From Bythopirellula sp. (GTDB lineage: Bacteria; Planctomycetota; Planctomycetia; Pirellulales; Lacipirellulaceae), in assembly GCA_965216565.1 (NCBI GenBank), contig OZ244170.1:3616001-3680000 (forward strand): a DNA stretch of 64,000 bases. The letters are read 5' to 3'. The position numbers were made by a program, and so were the translations under genes. Under the pieces are notes generated by a model. That model did no database searches and had not been told where the DNA came from. It saw nothing but the letters and a program-made list of their open reading frames with translations. Shown piece after piece: positions 20,615 through 57,569 of this stretch. Positions within the stretch are counted from its first letter, which is position 1; each line of letters starts with the position of its first letter.

Positions 20615-21517
20615 ATGAAACTCACCCCCGCCCAGGCCCTGCTCCGCGCGCTGGTTGCCACGCTGTTCTTCTGCAGTGCGCCTGCCTGTGTGCGTGCTGT
20701 GGAAATGAACGCCTACACGCTAGGTGTGGCCCGTTTGGGGATGGCAAGCTTGGGCGTATTTGCCGTGCTCCTCTGGCAAAGGAAACTCTCTGTCAGTCAG
20801 ATTGCGCAATGGCCCGCCCGCACTTGGCAGGCGATGCTCTCAGTCGGCCTGATGTTCGGCCTGCACTGGCTGTTATTCTTCGTCAGCATCAAATGGGCGA
20901 GCGCCTCGATCGGCGCGATCGGCATGTCTACCTACGGTATCCAACTCTTAGTTCTGGGATGGGTGCTGGGCTTCGGTCGAGTCACGCCTATCGACGTGGT
21001 AGGCTTTTTCTTTGCTGTCACGGGCACCATCCTGCTGGTGCCAAAATTCGACCTGGCCAACCAACAAACGTTAGGTCTAGTGATGGCGATAGCCAGCGGA
21101 ACGGCCGCCGCCACACTTCCGCTGTTGCATCAAAAATTCTCCGACGTCGACAATAACCTCCGCACCTGGGGACAATTCACTTTTGGCATTCCCGTCTTCT
21201 GCCTCTTTTTTCCCGAACTGAATTGGGACGTTCCCTCTAGCGATTGGTTGCCGGTCCTGTATCTAGGCTTCGGTATTGCGCTGGTGGGTCACGCTCTTTG
21301 GATCCAGGCCACCACCGCTCTATCGACCACCGTCACTGGTATCCTGGCTTATGTCTATTTGCCTGGATCGCTGTTGTTCAGTTATCTGACCATCGGCGAA
21401 CGCCTGACGGGAATCATGCTACTGGGCACCGCCTGCGTCCTGGTGGCCAACGCCCTAGTGCTCTGGAATCAGTCGAAGCTCCGCGCGCTTGAAGCGAATG
21501 TGCCAGAAACTATGTAG
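20615..21517 (+). CDS. DMT/EamA family transporter
   Basis: About 10 TM helices in two EamA-like repeats; HWLLFF.SI and GERLT motifs. Confidence 0.9.
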   Translation: MKLTPAQALLRALVATLFFCSAPACVRAVEMNAYTLGVARLGMASLGVFAVLLWQRKLSVSQIAQWPARTWQAMLSVGLMFGLHWLLFFVSIKWASASIGAIGMSTYGIQLLVLGWVLGFGRVTPIDVVGFFFAVTGTILLVPKFDLANQQTLGLVMAIASGTAAATLPLLHQKFSDVDNNLRTWGQFTFGIPVFCLFFPELNWDVPSSDWLPVLYLGFGIALVGHALWIQATTALSTTVTGILAYVYLPGSLLFSYLTIGERLTGIMLLGTACVLVANALVLWNQSKLRALEANVPETM

Positions 21518-21611
21518 GGGCACGGGCAATGCTGCTGTTCGCAAATGGCCTGCAGAGGATTGCTACTTGTACTTTGCGCAAAGCACCTAGTGGGTCGCTG
21601 CATGAATGCTG

Positions 21612-21803
21612 CTACAGCGAATCGTCTCCCGTGCGTGTGAGGGCGAAGTAGATCACGTAGAACCACGACAGGAACCCGGCCACAATGGCCCAGAAGATCG
21701 ATTTATTTCGTTCCCAGCTGCACACCACGGCAACGGCTGCACCTAGTGTAATGCCGGAGTGCGTGACGTTTTGGACAACGGTTTCGGCGAGAAGCATCGG
21801 CAA
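21612..21803 (-). CDS. Small two-TM membrane protein
   Basis: 63 aa, GITLGAAVAVVCSW.RNKSI.WAI.AG.LSWFYVIYF; GGGA upstream of ATG. Confidence 0.7.
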   Translation of the reverse strand: MPMLLAETVVQNVTHSGITLGAAVAVVCSWERNKSIFWAIVAGFLSWFYVIYFALTRTGDDSL

Positions 21804-21843
21804 TTTCCCTTTGGCTTTGGTTTTCTAGACGGAGTGTTATTTT

Positions 21844-21870
21844 GCCACAGAGGGCACAGGGAACATAGAG
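21844..21870. repeat. CCAC-anchored 9-nt-periodic repeat arm
   Basis: GCCACAGAGGG-CACAGGGAA-CATAGAG; direct relative of 22403-22428 and inverted relative of 23324-23341. Confidence 0.7.
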
Positions 21871-21987
21871 AAACAACTATGTGGACAAGACTTCCACGTA
21901 ATCCATCCTTGAAAGTTCTATCCGGGTATTCGCTCCGAACTGCCGGATATTGGCTTTTTTGAAGAGCCTTTTCCGTGAGTGCAAGAA

Positions 21988-22335
21988 TTACGAGTCTGAG
22001 TTTTGCCTGGCAAGCAGCAGGGGATCGACGCTCGCCTCGATCTCCGCAATGAGGTCTGGATCCATGTATTTATACTCGTCGGGAATATCCAGGACGTGAA
22101 ATTCCTGGTGCCGCATCTCCCCGGGAAATTTGCTCGCCACCCGTTGGTGATGTTTCCGCTCCATGAAGAATACGACGTCGGCCCACTTCAAATCCGCCGA
22201 CGCCACGGTTCGCCGCGCGGTGGGACTCGTCCCCGCCGACCGCACCTGCGCCCGCGGATGCCTGGCATACACCTTCTCCGCAGTCGGACTCCGCCACTGA
22301 TTCATCGTGCAGATGAAAAGAAGATTAAGCGACAT
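21988..22335 (-). CDS. Low-molecular-weight protein-tyrosine phosphatase-like protein
   Basis: LLFICTMNQWRSPTAE (CX5R-S P-loop), SAGT, WAD and LDIPD motifs; ATG 22335. Confidence 0.88.
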   Translation of the reverse strand: MSLNLLFICTMNQWRSPTAEKVYARHPRAQVRSAGTSPTARRTVASADLKWADVVFFMERKHHQRVASKFPGEMRHQEFHVLDIPDEYKYMDPDLIAEIEASVDPLLLARQNSDS

Positions 22336-22402
22336 CGGCTCGCTCTGTTTGGTTTCGTGGTGTGGTAATTCGCTGCCCGATAGGTGGGGCCTTTTTAATT
22401 TA

Positions 22403-22428
22403 CCACAGAGGACGCGGAGGTCGCAGAG
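22403..22428. repeat. CCAC-anchored 9-nt-periodic repeat arm
   Basis: CCACAGAGGA-CGCGGAGGT-CGCAGAG; inverted partner at 23324-23340. Confidence 0.7.
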
Positions 22429-22557
22429 GTGAAAAGTCCTTAGTGCCACTGGTTTTGTAACTAGAGTAAAGATGGTGAATACATAGCTAGCGATATCTAG
22501 GCTATGGTCATATCAATGGGCGGGTGGTGTTGAAGTGGTTTTATCCCACTGTTTTCC

Positions 22558-23247
22558 TCACTCGATATTGTCTCGCTTCTCAAGGTTATGTCGAACGCAT
22601 AGTAGCTGAACATTCTCTGCTGCCAATGATGTTCCACCGCGGGAATAAGGCAGAATGTGGTCGAAGTGTAGTTCATCGTTGGCACCACACATTACACACT
22701 TTCCTCTGTCTCGCTTCCATACCTCGAGCTTGATTCTAGTTGGTATTAACCTGCCATGAGATAGCTCTGCGGTCATCTCGGACTTTTTGCCAGCTTCAAC
22801 ATTCTTTATGCGAAGCGTGAACTTGAAGACTTTCCTAACGCCATTCCCTTCCAAGCAAGAATCAATGAGCTGAAACACCCCATTAAAGGACCAAATTCCG
22901 GGACGCAGCTTCTCGTAAACGCGTACCATTTCTGGAGAGCGAAGTTTCGATTTGTATTCGTTCGCGGCATTATGAAACTTACCGTTCTCGGTGAGTTTTC
23001 CACTTGGCAATCGCTCTGGTTGATCGACTAGTTTTGGATTTGGGCATGTTGAAGTTTTCGGTTCATCGTGGCCCTCATAGATTAGTGTTAGACCATCCTT
23101 AGTAATTGTATCTGTATAAGGTGCATTGCTACGCTGCGACATTAGCAAGATCGAGGGCCGACCAGAGGACGAGAAGTTCATCCCTCTCTGTAAATTGAGA
23201 CCTTCTCGTTGGCACATCTCGGCATAAGAAACAATTTCGTTCGACAT
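22558..23247 (-). CDS. HNH endonuclease with N-terminal SRA-like domain
   Basis: C-terminal VWKRDRGKCVMCG...LHFDHILPYSRGG....NVQLLCVRHN; N-terminal YTD...LIYEG...DQ...N...VRVY; visibly AT-rich. Confidence 0.88.
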   Translation of the reverse strand: MSNEIVSYAEMCQREGLNLQRGMNFSSSGRPSILLMSQRSNAPYTDTITKDGLTLIYEGHDEPKTSTCPNPKLVDQPERLPSGKLTENGKFHNAANEYKSKLRSPEMVRVYEKLRPGIWSFNGVFQLIDSCLEGNGVRKVFKFTLRIKNVEAGKKSEMTAELSHGRLIPTRIKLEVWKRDRGKCVMCGANDELHFDHILPYSRGGTSLAAENVQLLCVRHNLEKRDNIE

Positions 23248-23323
23248 AGTATCTCTTCATCTGTGAGTCATCATTCTGTACATTCCCATAATATAAATAG
23301 CGACCACATTCCCTTCCACTAGA

Positions 23324-23341
23324 CTCCGCACCCTCCGTGGC
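23324..23341. repeat. Inverted CCAC repeat arm upstream of the HNH gene
   Basis: Minus strand reads GCCACGGAGGGTGCGGAG. Confidence 0.65.
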
Positions 23342-23358
23342 TTTCTCCCTCTCCAATG

Positions 23359-23393
23359 AAAAACGGGCCCCGGTGCAATACACCGAAGCCCGT
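23359..23393 (-). terminator. Intrinsic terminator downstream of nrdJ
   Basis: Minus strand AACGGGCTTCGGTG-TATTG-CACCGGGGCCCGTT followed by a T tract. Confidence 0.65.
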
Positions 23394-23418
23394 TGGGAAA
23401 ACCATTCATTGCGAGGCA

Positions 23419-23459
23419 CTAGCCCCTAGCCCCCAGCTCCTACCCACTAGCCCCTACCC
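23419..23459. repeat. Degenerate heptamer tandem repeat (CTAGCCC)n
   Basis: CTAGCCC CTAGCCC CCAGCTC CTACCCA CTAGCCC CTACCC. Confidence 0.8.
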
Positions 23460-23526
23460 AAAAAATATCGCTGCTCGCGGGCGTCGGTGCCCCGAGCGTC
23501 CTGCTACGAGCAGCGGTTGGAAGTGG

Positions 23527-23577
23527 TTAGCTGTCAGCTCTCAGCTTGTCGAAACAAGGCTGAAAGCTGACCGCTGA
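23527..23577. repeat. Heptamer-based inverted repeat hairpin
   Basis: TTAGCTGTCAGCTCTCAGC...GCTGAAAGCTGACCGCTGA immediately after the nrdJ stop. Confidence 0.7.
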
Positions 23578-23589
23578 ATGCTGATGGCT

Positions 23590-26500
23590 TTAACTACATC
23601 CCATCGAATTGCCACAATTGTGGCACAGGTAGCAGTTGCCGTTGCGGACCGTGATGGAGCCGCAGCCGTCGCAGCTGGGGGCGTCGGTTTGGAAGCCGGC
23701 AAACTGCTCGTTGCGGTCGCCACCGGCTTCGTCGTCGGTCCCCATCATCACCCCAGCACGCGCCAGTCGGTTGGTGTAGCCTTTGGAGTGACCGTTGGCG
23801 TGGCCATTGGTAGTTGCACCGTTTTGGCCTACCTCTGCCTCCTTGGCAACTGCCTGCCCGTCGGACTTCTTGTCGACGGGCTTGGTCTCGGTGAGATCGT
23901 CGCCCAGATCTGCGTTCGGGGACGAAGCGGCTCCCCCACCCCCTGCTCCCTCGCCGAGCGTCGCCTCCTTGTAGCCGGGCAAAAACTCGTTGCCCAACCA
24001 GCGGAAGATGTAGTCGATCAGACTCTTGGCGATGCGGATGTCCGGGTTCTTGGTGTAACCCTGCGGCTCGAACCGCATGTGCGAGAACTTGCGGACGTAG
24101 TCTTCCAACGGCACGCCGTATTGCAGGCTCATCGACACGCTGGTCCCGAAGGCGTCCATCAAACCGCCGATGGTGCTGCCTTCCTTAGCCATGGTGATGA
24201 ACAGCTCGCCGGGGCGACCGTCCTCGTAGAGGCCCACCGTGATGTAGCCCTCGTGGCCGCTGACGCTGAACTTGTGCGTGAGCGAATGCCGCGTTTCGGT
24301 CAGCCGTTCGCGACGCGGTCGTCCCACCGTGGCGGCCAGCTTGTCTTTGGCCTTGTCGCCCTCGGTCGACGTGCTCAACGGTTGGCTTTCCTTCGAGCCG
24401 TCGCGGTAGATCGCCAAGGCTTTGAGACCCAGCTTCCAGCCGTCGACGTACGCCTGACCGATTTCCTCCGGCGTGGTTTCCCGTGGCATGTTGACCGTCT
24501 TGGAAATCGCCCCGGAAAGGAACGGCTGCGCGGCACCCATCATCGTCACGTGCGCTTGCCAGGCAATCGAACGCGTGCCGTTGCGGGGTGAAAATGCACA
24601 ATCGAATACCGGCAGATGCTCGTCGGCTAGTTCCTTGCTGCCTTCGATCGTGTCGTGACTATCGATGTACTCGAGAATCGACTCGATCTGCGGCTGGTCG
24701 TAACCCAACGTCTGCAGTGCCAGTGGTACGGTTTGGTTGACGATCTTCAGCATGCCACCGCCGGCAAGCTGCTTGTACTTCACCAGGGCGATGTCCGGTT
24801 CGATGCCGGTGGTATCGCAATCCATCATGAAGCTGATCGTGCCGGTAGGCGCGAGCACCGTGGCCTGGGCGTTGCGGAAGCCATGCACGCGACCGGCGGC
24901 CAGTACGTTGTCCCAAGACTTGCGAGCGGCAGCGACCAGATAGTCCGGACATTCCGGCTGGATCTGCTCAACCGCGTCGCGATGCTTTTGCATCACTCGC
25001 ATCATCGGTTCGTGGTTGGGCTCGTACTCGTCGAAGGTGCCCACGGCCTCGGCCAGCTCGCTGCTGGTAAGGTTCGCCGCACCGTGCATCAGCGAGGTAA
25101 TCGCTCCACAGATGCCGCGGGCTTTGTCGGAATCGTAAGCCACGCCGCCAGACATTAACAAGCTGCCCAGGTTCGAGTAGCCGAGTCCGAGTGGACGGAA
25201 CAGATGGCTATTGCGGGCGATGTCGGGCGTCGGATAACTGGCGTGATCGACCAAAATCTCCTGCGCGATGAAGAACGTCCGGCAAGCCGTTTGGTAACGC
25301 TCGTGATCGAACGTGCCATCGTCCTGACGGAACTTCATCAAGTTCACGCTGGCCAGGTTGCACGCCGTGTCGTCGAGGAACATGTACTCGCTGCACGGGT
25401 TACTGGCATTGATGCGACCACTGTTGGGGCACGTGTGCCAATCGTTGATGGTCGTGTCGTATTGCACGCCGGGGTCGCCACAGTGCCAGGCACATTCGGC
25501 CATCCGACTCACCACTTCGCGAGCCGGATAGGTTGGGCCAGGAATGTTTTCGTCGGTGACCCAACGCGTGGTCCAATCTTCGTTCTTTTCGACCGCTTGC
25601 ATAAAGTCGTCGGTGACGCGGACGGAGAGATTGGCGTTTTGGAACATGATCGAGCTATAGGCTTCGCCATTAAAGTTGGCCTCGTAGCCGCCCTTCTCGA
25701 TCAGCACGCGAGCCTTTTGCTCTTCTTTCCACTTGCACTCGATGAACTCCATCACGTCTGGGTGCCAGACCTTGATCGATTGCATCTTGGCGGCGCGGCG
25801 CGTTTTGCCGCCACTTTTCACCACGGCTGCAATTTGGTCGTAGACACGCATGAACGAGAGCGGGCCGCTGGGGTTGCCGCCGCCGGAAAGTTTTTCCCGA
25901 TGCGATCGCAGCGTGGAGAGGTCGGTCCCCGTACCGCTACCAAACTTGAAGAGCATCGCCTCGCTGCGGGCCAGCTCCATGATGTCTTCCATGTTGTCAT
26001 CAACATGCTGGATGAAGCACGCGCTGCCCTGCGGATATTCGTACGGATTCTCCGGCTGCGCGACGTTCTGCGTCACCGGATCCCACCGCCAGTTGCAGGG
26101 ATCGCCCGACACGCCGTACTGATGGAACAGACCGACGTTGAACCACACTGGTGAATTGAATGCACCATGCTGATGCAAACAGAGCCAAGCCAAATCGCGG
26201 TAGTAGCGCTCGCCATCTTCGGGGCTGGCAAAGTAGCCATCTTCCAAACCCCAATCGGTAATGGTGCGGGCAACGCGATGCACCAATTGACGCACGCTGT
26301 ACTCGCGCTCTTCGGTGCCGATTTCGCCGTAGAAGTACTTGCTGCAGATAACGTTGGTGGCAAGCTGCGACCAGAAGGAAGGCACTTCGCAGTTGGTTTG
26401 CTCGAACAGCAGTTCGCCGTTCTCGCCTTTAATCTCGGCACTGCGGGTTTCCCATTCGACGGTGTCAAAGGGATCGGCAACGTCCGTGGGGCAGAAGGTG

Positions 26501-26607
26501 GTATCGACCTTTAGCCGACCATGAAAACGCTTGACACGTTCCTGGCTATCGGAAAGACCGGGGTTGGTTCCTTGTGAGCTCTTCATTCCAAAGTCGACAG
26601 TGGCCAC
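23590..26607 (-). CDS. nrdJ: Vitamin B12-dependent (class II) ribonucleotide reductase
   Basis: FNSPVWFN, SACFI, RRAAKM, SNPCSE, ACNLAS, APTGTIS, SGAISKTVN; TSCPD-like C-terminal domain with CxxC...CxxC. GTG 26607 follows AGGAGG (ORF track start 26664). Confidence 0.96.
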   Translation of the reverse strand: MATVDFGMKSSQGTNPGLSDSQERVKRFHGRLKVDTTFCPTDVADPFDTVEWETRSAEIKGENGELLFEQTNCEVPSFWSQLATNVICSKYFYGEIGTEEREYSVRQLVHRVARTITDWGLEDGYFASPEDGERYYRDLAWLCLHQHGAFNSPVWFNVGLFHQYGVSGDPCNWRWDPVTQNVAQPENPYEYPQGSACFIQHVDDNMEDIMELARSEAMLFKFGSGTGTDLSTLRSHREKLSGGGNPSGPLSFMRVYDQIAAVVKSGGKTRRAAKMQSIKVWHPDVMEFIECKWKEEQKARVLIEKGGYEANFNGEAYSSIMFQNANLSVRVTDDFMQAVEKNEDWTTRWVTDENIPGPTYPAREVVSRMAECAWHCGDPGVQYDTTINDWHTCPNSGRINASNPCSEYMFLDDTACNLASVNLMKFRQDDGTFDHERYQTACRTFFIAQEILVDHASYPTPDIARNSHLFRPLGLGYSNLGSLLMSGGVAYDSDKARGICGAITSLMHGAANLTSSELAEAVGTFDEYEPNHEPMMRVMQKHRDAVEQIQPECPDYLVAAARKSWDNVLAAGRVHGFRNAQATVLAPTGTISFMMDCDTTGIEPDIALVKYKQLAGGGMLKIVNQTVPLALQTLGYDQPQIESILEYIDSHDTIEGSKELADEHLPVFDCAFSPRNGTRSIAWQAHVTMMGAAQPFLSGAISKTVNMPRETTPEEIGQAYVDGWKLGLKALAIYRDGSKESQPLSTSTEGDKAKDKLAATVGRPRRERLTETRHSLTHKFSVSGHEGYITVGLYEDGRPGELFITMAKEGSTIGGLMDAFGTSVSMSLQYGVPLEDYVRKFSHMRFEPQGYTKNPDIRIAKSLIDYIFRWLGNEFLPGYKEATLGEGAGGGGAASSPNADLGDDLTETKPVDKKSDGQAVAKEAEVGQNGATTNGHANGHSKGYTNRLARAGVMMGTDDEAGGDRNEQFAGFQTDAPSCDGCGSITVRNGNCYLCHNCGNSMGCS

Positions 26608-26835
26608 AGCATAACCTCCTGTTAAATAGATTCCTGGGGCATCCATACCAATGATCGGAAACATGTACTCCTGTACACCAATCCAATCTAAGTGTAACCA
26701 ATATTAGGTCTGTCCGCCAAACATGTTTTCAGCGAGCGATGCTCGGAAGGAAACAAGCTTCTGGGTTGTCGGGTACCAGATTTTGGGGGGTGATAGACCT
26801 TGACTCGTCAAAAACGAGGTAATTTATTCGCCAAA

Positions 26836-28077: not shown

Positions 28078-28569
28078 TCAGTCCCTCATGTGACCGAGGA
28101 TTTGAAGGACTCTAAAAACGGGGTTGCGCGCATCATATGTTTCATTTGAAGCGAGTTCCAGCAACTCGGTAATCTTGGCTTTATACTGCTCGTTGATAAT
28201 TAGTTCCAAATCTTCAATCTCCTCCAAATGCTCTGTAATAAATCCCTTCGGGACATAAGGAGACCAAAACTGAAATCGCAAACTCTCAAATGTTCGCAAG
28301 TAGTGCTTTGAATACTCTTTCTGTCGAGAGATCTTTCTCGTAACTCTCTCGACAGTTTCTTGATTGCTACCATACTGCAATCCCCGAATGTGAGTGGTGA
28401 CCTCACACAGGATAGCTTCTCGATTCGCAAAATTTAGCCCCAAGACGTCAAGCTCATTGAGACCTTGCAGACCACCACCTGGGGGCCTGACATTGTAGTC
28501 AACGACGTCGCACTGTTCGATTAACTGAAGATATGCACCAACAAAATACTCACCAACGTCAGTAAGCAT
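28078..28569 (-). CDS. Hypothetical protein, PD-(D/E)XK nuclease-like
   Basis: GEYFVGAYL (helix E), NELDVLG and LCEVTT (ExT instead of ExK); AT-rich; GGAG before ATG 28569. Confidence 0.7.
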   Translation of the reverse strand: MLTDVGEYFVGAYLQLIEQCDVVDYNVRPPGGGLQGLNELDVLGLNFANREAILCEVTTHIRGLQYGSNQETVERVTRKISRQKEYSKHYLRTFESLRFQFWSPYVPKGFITEHLEEIEDLELIINEQYKAKITELLELASNETYDARNPVFRVLQILGHMRD

Positions 28570-28646
28570 TAGTTCTCCCAATAAGAGGAAGCCACGAAAG
28601 AGTTGTCCGATCCGCGCTATTCGTGGTCCTCAACCGAACCACCGAA

Positions 28647-57113: not shown

Positions 57114-57569
57114 ATAGCCACAAAAAGCACGAAAAGTTAGTGCGGCGTCATGAGGTATTTTTTGACGTAAAGCTTTTCGCTTCCAAAGTTGATCAACAGG
57201 CCTGTTTCTATTCGCGATGATCTCAAATAGCCCAATAGTTGGGCAACATGTTCGTCTGCAGTTGCCCTACAGGCCTTTAGTTCTACAATCAATTGGCCTT
57301 CAATGAATAGATCGGCAAAGTATTCTCCCAATACCGTTCCGTCTTCATCTATTACGTTGAGGGGATGTTGCTGTAGCACTTGCAACCCTTGTTTCCGTAA
57401 TCGATGTACCAAGGCATTCTCATAAACCTTTTCTAAGTGCCCGCAACGGTGGTATTTGTGGATGTCGAAACTTGTTTGTCGAACGATGTCGCATAATTCG
57501 TTGATCGAATCCCACGCTGCCTTCATGTTCAATTGCCTTCTCGTGACTTTTCGTGTTTTTTGTGGCTAT
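57114..57569. mobile_element. Putative IR-bounded GxxExxY cassette (456 bp)
   Basis: 24-bp inverted repeats (23/24) at 57114-57137 and 57546-57569 enclose exactly one gene. Confidence 0.55.
57137..57532 (-). CDS. GxxExxY protein (PD-(D/E)XK-like nuclease family)
   Basis: GHLEKVYENAL, YFADLFIE..LIVELKA, AQLLGYL and GLLINFG motifs. Confidence 0.95.
   Translation of the reverse strand: MNMKAAWDSINELCDIVRQTSFDIHKYHRCGHLEKVYENALVHRLRKQGLQVLQQHPLNVIDEDGTVLGEYFADLFIEGQLIVELKACRATADEHVAQLLGYLRSSRIETGLLINFGSEKLYVKKYLMTPH

Follow-up and report, generated by a model that had tools for sequence, protein, structure and literature searches.

Integron gene cassettes, with their attC sites and the integrase IntI, place single foreign genes between repeats and vary among strains, and the slots described here are alike in both respects. 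Tandem inverted repeats around small prokaryotic genes are also reportedly the subject of a recent preprint, which, if real, would lower the novelty of the present locus. The closest described repeats are the class 2 paired 'global regulator binding sites' of Geobacter metallireducens, 21 inward-facing pairs composed of three tandem CACGGAG-type units according to the accessible text of that report (Aklujkar 2009, PMC2700814). REPINs and their RAYTs, in the part of their description available (Bertels and Rainey 2011, PMC3116915), resemble our repeats in being over-represented inverted doublets with conserved arms and a variable spacer, in having singlets that are decayed remnants, in amplifying as units and in lying near a single-gene candidate mobiliser. 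The window analysed here is a 64,000-nt stretch of the Bythopirellula sp. contig OZ244170.1 (positions 3,616,001 to 3,680,000), in which three arms (A, B and C) surround two small genes. All three belong to a dispersed family of inward-facing inverted arms, each made of two to three tandem 9-base units with a consensus of about RCCRCRGAG. As far as our literature search reached, the family is in print solely as putative binding sites; within its scope, and in the portions of text available, the arms are nowhere described as gene-bearing elements.

The EamA transporter gene and nrdJ are convergent. Between them, on the minus strand, lie the HNH and phosphatase genes, placed as in the initial annotation (Table 1). 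As for the dispersed repeats that follow nrdJ, similar 7-base arrays are found after nrdJ in many congeners, one unit (at 23440) is absent in a sister strain, and the GC-rich palindrome is also present in congeners. Elsewhere in the window, a 167-aa ORF at 28078–28581 on the minus strand, beside TspO and rplU, has no Pfam match and looks by eye like a PD-(D/E)XK-type nuclease.

Table 1. Features of the arm-bearing locus and related arm pairs (positions in the window, except for the last line, which gives positions within separately extracted loci)
Feature	Position	Strand	Description
EamA transporter gene	20615..21517	+	Conserved left flank of the variable slot
Arm C	21844..21870	+	Extra copy in the same orientation as arm B; singlet or remnant of an older doublet
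LMW phosphotyrosine-phosphatase-like gene	21988..22335	-	Small, 115 aa; GC 58%; between arms C and B
Arm B	22402..22428	+	Three 9-base units; faces inward, partner of arm A; sister-strain contig diverges at its inner edge (22429)
SRA-HNH gene	22558..23247	-	229 aa; predicted TagI-like modification-dependent restriction endonuclease; GC 45.9%, 1.4th percentile of genes
Arm A	23324..23341	-	Two 9-base repeat units, third decayed; G/T-richest family copy in the genome (tied)
Terminator-like hairpin after nrdJ	23362..23394	-	15 pairs, 9 of them G-C, T tract; sister-strain contigs diverge at 23381, the hairpin apex
Other dispersed repeats between nrdJ and terminator	23419..23590		Two 7-base tandem arrays and a GC-rich palindrome; matches elsewhere in the genome
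Class II ribonucleotide reductase gene nrdJ	23590..26664	-	Conserved right flank
GxxExxY (PDDEXK_3) gene	57117..57566	-	A-rich variant 9-base arms, geometry as at the HNH locus; candidate trans-acting partner; arm ends hand-counted, approximate
Arm pairs with low-GC ORFans	L242:1032-1782, L243:1008-1445, L245:995-1622, L247:961-1516, L246, L244		ORFs of 202, 87, 142, 155, 260 (DUF5677) and 220+130 aa, respectively

Sixty-three sites in the genome exceed a PWM score of 17, eight of which overlap genes from a simple gene finder, some perhaps by chance. At a score of 18, the genome yields 71 sites and the reversed genome one. An inward-facing partner lies within 1.7 kb of 17 of the 33 plus-strand copies and an outward-facing partner within that distance of one; in 2000 simulation runs, the mean number with an inward partner was 0.39 and the maximum 5. 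A strict form of the pattern occurs in 26 of 27 genomes of the genus, in 0 to 95 copies against at most one in the control. Single arms have no notable self-hairpin (−3 to −7 kcal/mol). In the congener G015, near-identical doublets of 72–74 nt have common spacers, and 12 of 30 selected pairs have identical arms, in a sample biased to young copies because the strict pattern was used for selection. Eight of these 30 pairs are enlarged by other repeats inserted in the spacer. The doublets are far more frequent than expected by chance, spread as short gene-less units, occupy gene junctions where relatives have nothing, and accept inserts between their arms. The same congener also contains four copies, in both orientations, of a second 9-base arm family nested in the spacer of the first (L337, L343, L346 and L354), which suggests that the nested element spread in one piece.

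The family is associated with GxxExxY genes. Variant arms with the same inward geometry flank each of the four GxxExxY (PDDEXK_3) genes of this genome, and at the copy in the window the downstream arm begins directly after the stop codon. Of 113 GxxExxY loci surveyed, five at contig edges were excluded; the 108 assessable loci yielded 84 distinct inverted pairs with a score of at least 15, a few of the automatic picks being neighbouring arms rather than the inner pair. This co-location suggests that the GxxExxY protein, a PD-(D/E)XK nuclease, is probably a trans-acting mobiliser of the doublets. The HNH locus has the family architecture, with two to three tandem CACRGAG-type units per arm and an inward B/A pair whose purine-rich strand reads inwards, but between its arms the SRA-HNH gene, unrelated to GxxExxY, takes the place of a GxxExxY gene. 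A tblastn search for GxxExxY remnants in the spacers gave no match. A RAYT partner was also considered and rejected, as none of the seven Y1 transposase (Y1_Tnp) matches in the genome has an arm within 500 nt.

The best explanation, and the one we judge probable, is that the arms are dispersed REPIN-like selfish doublets with an interior that takes in and exchanges foreign DNA. Each doublet would be a REPIN-like selfish unit spread in trans by the GxxExxY nuclease rather than by a RAYT, and its interior would act as a tolerated landing and recombination slot for other repeats and foreign genes. The SRA-HNH gene would then be a later arrival than the arms, an accessory gene for defence against 5mC/5hmC DNA that is either retained or exchanged. 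While the spread of the doublets and the variability of their interiors are seen directly in the genomes compared, we infer which enzyme acts, in what order the events took place and that there is a benefit for defence.

The SRA-HNH protein combines an N-terminal SRA fold containing a Tyr/Asp/Tyr pocket with a C-terminal HNH domain containing a zinc site. Its structure model (pLDDT 82.6, from an alignment comprising the query plus 77 of 80 loci) finds TagI (6ghs, E 6.9e-08) as the best match in a fold search, followed by SRA domains. PF01844 (HNH) is matched over its cut-off, and an Atlas SRA assignment that scored under 0.9 was later backed by SAD_SRA matches in 66 of 78 family members and by the TagI fold match. 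Invariant positions in the family are Y44, D46 and Y57 and, in the C-terminal part, C184, C187, H197, N212, C217, H220 and N221. PADLOC returned only weak HNH-domain matches for this protein and a PDB sequence search only HNH-domain matches. TagI cuts 5mC/5hmC DNA according to the available part of its description (PMC6212794), which also allows a comparison of residues: the two proteins are alike in the SRA pocket and HNH residues as well as in fold, but they are only 17% identical, measure 229 and 285 residues, and differ in the spacing of the pocket Tyr and Asp (2 here and 3 in TagI). Given the cleavage specificity of TagI, the modelled protein is likely to be a stand-alone defence nuclease directed against 5mC/5hmC invader DNA. 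Its best 80 of 240 homologue loci come from many phyla (57–66% identity), and in none of these 80 is there a family arm closer than 400 nt; a search of 26 congeners did not recover the protein at full length. Because these 80 homologues are without arms, the GC content is low and no full-length copy was found in the congeners, we regard the gene as a passenger and not as the element's own enzyme.

The slot between nrdJ and the EamA gene is variable. It is syntenic in six congeners, where it ranges from 510 to 8419 nt with differing contents and contains neither the SRA-HNH nor the phosphatase gene in any; in the congener G009, a gene-less 9-base doublet lies directly after the same nrdJ terminator. 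A much closer relative is represented in run X5, with 22 differences in 2014 nt (98–99% identical). One X5 contig of 1091 nt matches 21588–22429 and then continues for 239 letters with no match in the window, and a second matches 23381–24093 and has 735 further letters with no match in the window; depth figures for these contigs cover the matched parts only. In run X7, from another study, the match likewise starts at 23381. The breaks at 22429 and 23381 indicate that the sister strain keeps the phosphatase gene, arm C and arm B and has other sequence from the inner edge of arm B. Thus, between arm B and the nrdJ terminator, this genome has a foreign SRA-HNH gene and a near-identical strain has different sequence, as read from two unbridged metagenome contigs, one of whose junctions falls at a dispersed repeat and could be a mis-join. 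The junction at 23381 falls some 40 nt beyond the outer side of arm A, so that the ends of the exchanged unit do not coincide exactly with the two arms. In both runs the HNH gene is without cover and the slot is unbridged, and this missing cover is not counted as evidence. We also observed, in record 23 of run X7 (21897–22196), a contig of a related strain whose match breaks off midway through the phosphatase gene and is followed by 471 unlike letters, and a 10-base insertion at the phosphatase stop codon (21989) that is common to X5 and X7.

The initial annotation described the two genes as a small cassette array with one arm after each. Part of this description holds, in that the slot between arms A and B contains a foreign gene here and has other contents in a near-identical strain, and other arm pairs also frame single ORFs. 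The phosphatase gene does not fit as a second cassette: its GC content is 58%, its nearest relatives (67–80%) bear Planctomycetota names where they are named, and the sister strain retains it together with both arms C and B; among the 26 congeners it has one distant match. A search for an upstream arm of its own near 22343–22370 gave no PWM score above 4, and the similarity between arms B and C is confined to the repeat itself, with no sign of a longer duplication. For arm C, the best reading is a leftover singlet and not a regulatory alternative. Tandem arms in the same orientation are present at two other loci. At another site (G000:C1:2254986-2255450), a direct duplication of about 265 nt downstream of a GxxExxY gene has produced two tandem right arms, nested like B and C.

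Six further arm pairs in this genome enclose seven unrelated ORFs of 87–260 aa, six without a Pfam family and one assigned to DUF5677; two of the pairs (2990978 and 4426609) have weakly matched arms. Several of them abut the stop codons of convergent flanking genes. With the HNH gene included, 8 of the 9 ORFs between arms rank, by GC content, among the lowest 6.3% of genes. The arms could be read as a general device for the capture and delivery of single genes, with arms and gene moving or exchanging as one unit in the manner of a miniature composite element without a transposase of its own. This reading, which we consider doubtful, draws on the excess of gene-size arm pairs (5 observed against 0.23 expected), on the sister-strain junction at the inner edge of arm B and on two junctions at which many congeners have a tight gap. 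At the ygfZ junction, the gap is at most 45 nt in 17 of 19 syntenic congeners (24 examined) and 566 nt here, composed of arm, ORF and arm. The amidinotransferase junction, which contains arms and a 202-aa ORF here, is tight in 7 of 17 syntenic congeners (20 examined), holds gene-less doublets of several subfamilies in four and is intermediate in three. The remaining three have gene-size inserts without detected arms, indicating that such junctions take in genes anyway. The aph flank is too rare in congeners to yield empty sites.

Other observations argue against capture of the gene together with its arms. At the amidinotransferase junction of the congener G017, the same arm subfamily encloses an unrelated short spacer, which fits arms first and the insert later, and no cargo was seen together with arms at a second site. 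In addition, none of the 80 best HNH homologues is armed, and congeners seldom have cargo: the 51 loci sampled, of which one is from this genome, gave 31 pairs, with one GxxExxY gene between arms, one doubtful ORF and no clear case of other cargo. A more specific proposal is an integrase-free gene-cassette system in which the GxxExxY protein, acting in trans, would cut at the arms and load or swap single foreign genes, such as the putatively anti-phage SRA-HNH nuclease at this locus and several ORFans elsewhere in the genome, among arm-marked slots at tight junctions; we put it forward tentatively, as a possible but unlikely mode of action. Neither IntI as a partner nor an integron cassette array is retained for this locus, as no IntI in the genome scores over the cut-off (best 82.5 against 265 bits) and no attC-type core pairs were found near arms B or C.

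Less probable still is that the arms are double-stranded binding sites of a host nucleoid or regulator protein, as in the 2009 Geobacter reading, and that the enclosed genes are chance insertions. The phased tandem units, the lack of a notable hairpin in single arms and the absence of strand polarity are what such sites would display, and the published account, in its accessible text, presents them as putative global regulator sites (PMC2700814). Selfish spread nevertheless fits better than a regulon because the copy number ranges from 0 to 95 between congeners, the arms are patchy at orthologous junctions and belong to different subfamilies there, identical units have been amplified, and the GxxExxY link extends across many contigs.

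Finally, the initial annotation had proposed that the arms are selected to pair in RNA or single-stranded DNA of the coding strand, with two nested partners of arm A controlling HNH alone or HNH plus the phosphatase. The pairings themselves were reproduced. On the minus strand, 23324–23340 pairs with 22403–22419 at 17 of 17 positions including three G-U, 23326–23341 pairs with 21844–21859 at 16 of 16 including four G-U, and the G-U positions of both read as A-C on the plus strand. The A–B duplex in fact reaches 18 of 18 with a fourth G-U; the A–C duplex as first given stops short of arm position 17, which is an A-C mismatch, and over 18 positions it contains four G-U and one A-C. All four A–B differences and four of the five A–C differences are G-U on the minus strand, where the duplexes are 6–11 kcal/mol stronger (A–B −30.0 and A–C −29.7 kcal/mol, versus −23.9 and −18.6 on the plus strand). 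In a fold of 21790–23400, arm A pairs with C and not with B on both strands (p ~1.0 on the minus strand and 0.94 on the plus strand).

Across copies, the one-strand bias vanishes. Arm pairs were scored by strand-neutral alignment and the transcribed strand was compared with the other. Sense and antisense G-U numbered 32 and 42 in this genome (p=0.30; 17 of 24 pairs with a defined direction, HNH locus included), 167 and 196 at GxxExxY genes (p=0.14; 84 pairs) and 11 and 10 in congeners (12 of 42 pairs with a defined direction, from 70 loci). Counted by locus, the GxxExxY set gives 24 versus 41 (p=0.046), in the direction opposite to that proposed and with kin that are not independent; there is no per-locus strand polarity of G-U (p=0.35). 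Among the 63 GxxExxY pairs with at least three transitions, one is all-G-U on the coding strand and nine on the template strand, with 3.7 expected for each. The slight template-strand excess at GxxExxY loci L111–L223 may reflect kinship or a real polarity of single-stranded DNA. A leading-strand mutational bias as the cause gave 57 versus 39 (p=0.08, a hand tally using skew extremes).

The composition of arm A accounts for the apparent bias. Transitions make up about two thirds of arm differences (363 versus 193), and any A/G or C/T transition between arms appears as G-U when one strand is read and as A-C when the opposite strand is read. Against 60 distant copies, arm A, the G/T-richest of the family, has 253 G-U-type and 25 A-C-type differences and forms mismatch-free duplexes with 11. 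With all 62 other copies it prefers one and the same strand, pairing more strongly in the 5′ than in the 3′ position (median −8.4 kcal/mol; B −7.0, C −10.6). Both 'perfect' pairings are thus due to the single arm A, which drifted to the G/T-rich end of the family, so that its mismatches all read as G-U on the strand that has it as the 5′ arm. Arms B and C are among its top eight partners (B 5th, C 8th, tied 6th–8th, n=62), a modest local match, and a switch between the two finds no support. The pairing is not peculiar to this locus, as the 11 other mismatch-free partners show. Arm A is common to both pairings, which are not independent of each other, and an Rfam search gave no match (nothing at E 1). 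With the terminator-like hairpin of nrdJ situated 20 nt upstream of arm A, it is doubtful that this arm is present in an abundant transcript. With the sense-strand excess missing from all three sets, selection on a coding-strand duplex is very improbable. The G-U signal is itself unimportant, and serves as a caution that purine-variable repeats yield one-strand wobble by chance.

Known systems resemble the arm family in part. An IVS-like RNA duplex around an ORF, as a substrate of RNase III, would be expected to show an excess of G-U relative to A-C on the transcribed strand when copies are compared, which is not the pattern here. The Geobacter class 2 sites agree in their variable and unrelated spacers, orientation and intergenic position, but their first unit spacing is 8 rather than 9; they were read as protein-binding, and a gene link, mobility and cargo do not appear in the portion of the text available (PMC2700814). 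In contrast to REPINs and RAYTs, as the accessible text presents them (PMC3116915), the arms here are 9-base tandem arrays and not palindromic REPs, they lie away from the seven Y1 transposase matches with a PD-(D/E)XK protein as the putative partner, and their interiors can contain whole foreign genes. Unlike integron cassettes, they are without strand-marking mismatches. New here are the negative G-U test, the unrelated cargo, which includes a restriction nuclease, and the strain-level junction at an arm edge; this junction makes the HNH locus a concrete strain-level test. Should arm pairs indeed take up and exchange single genes that are unrelated to one another, bacteria would have, in addition to integrons, another and so far undescribed cassette route for short genes of accessory or defence function, and the large uncharacterised GxxExxY family would gain a testable job.
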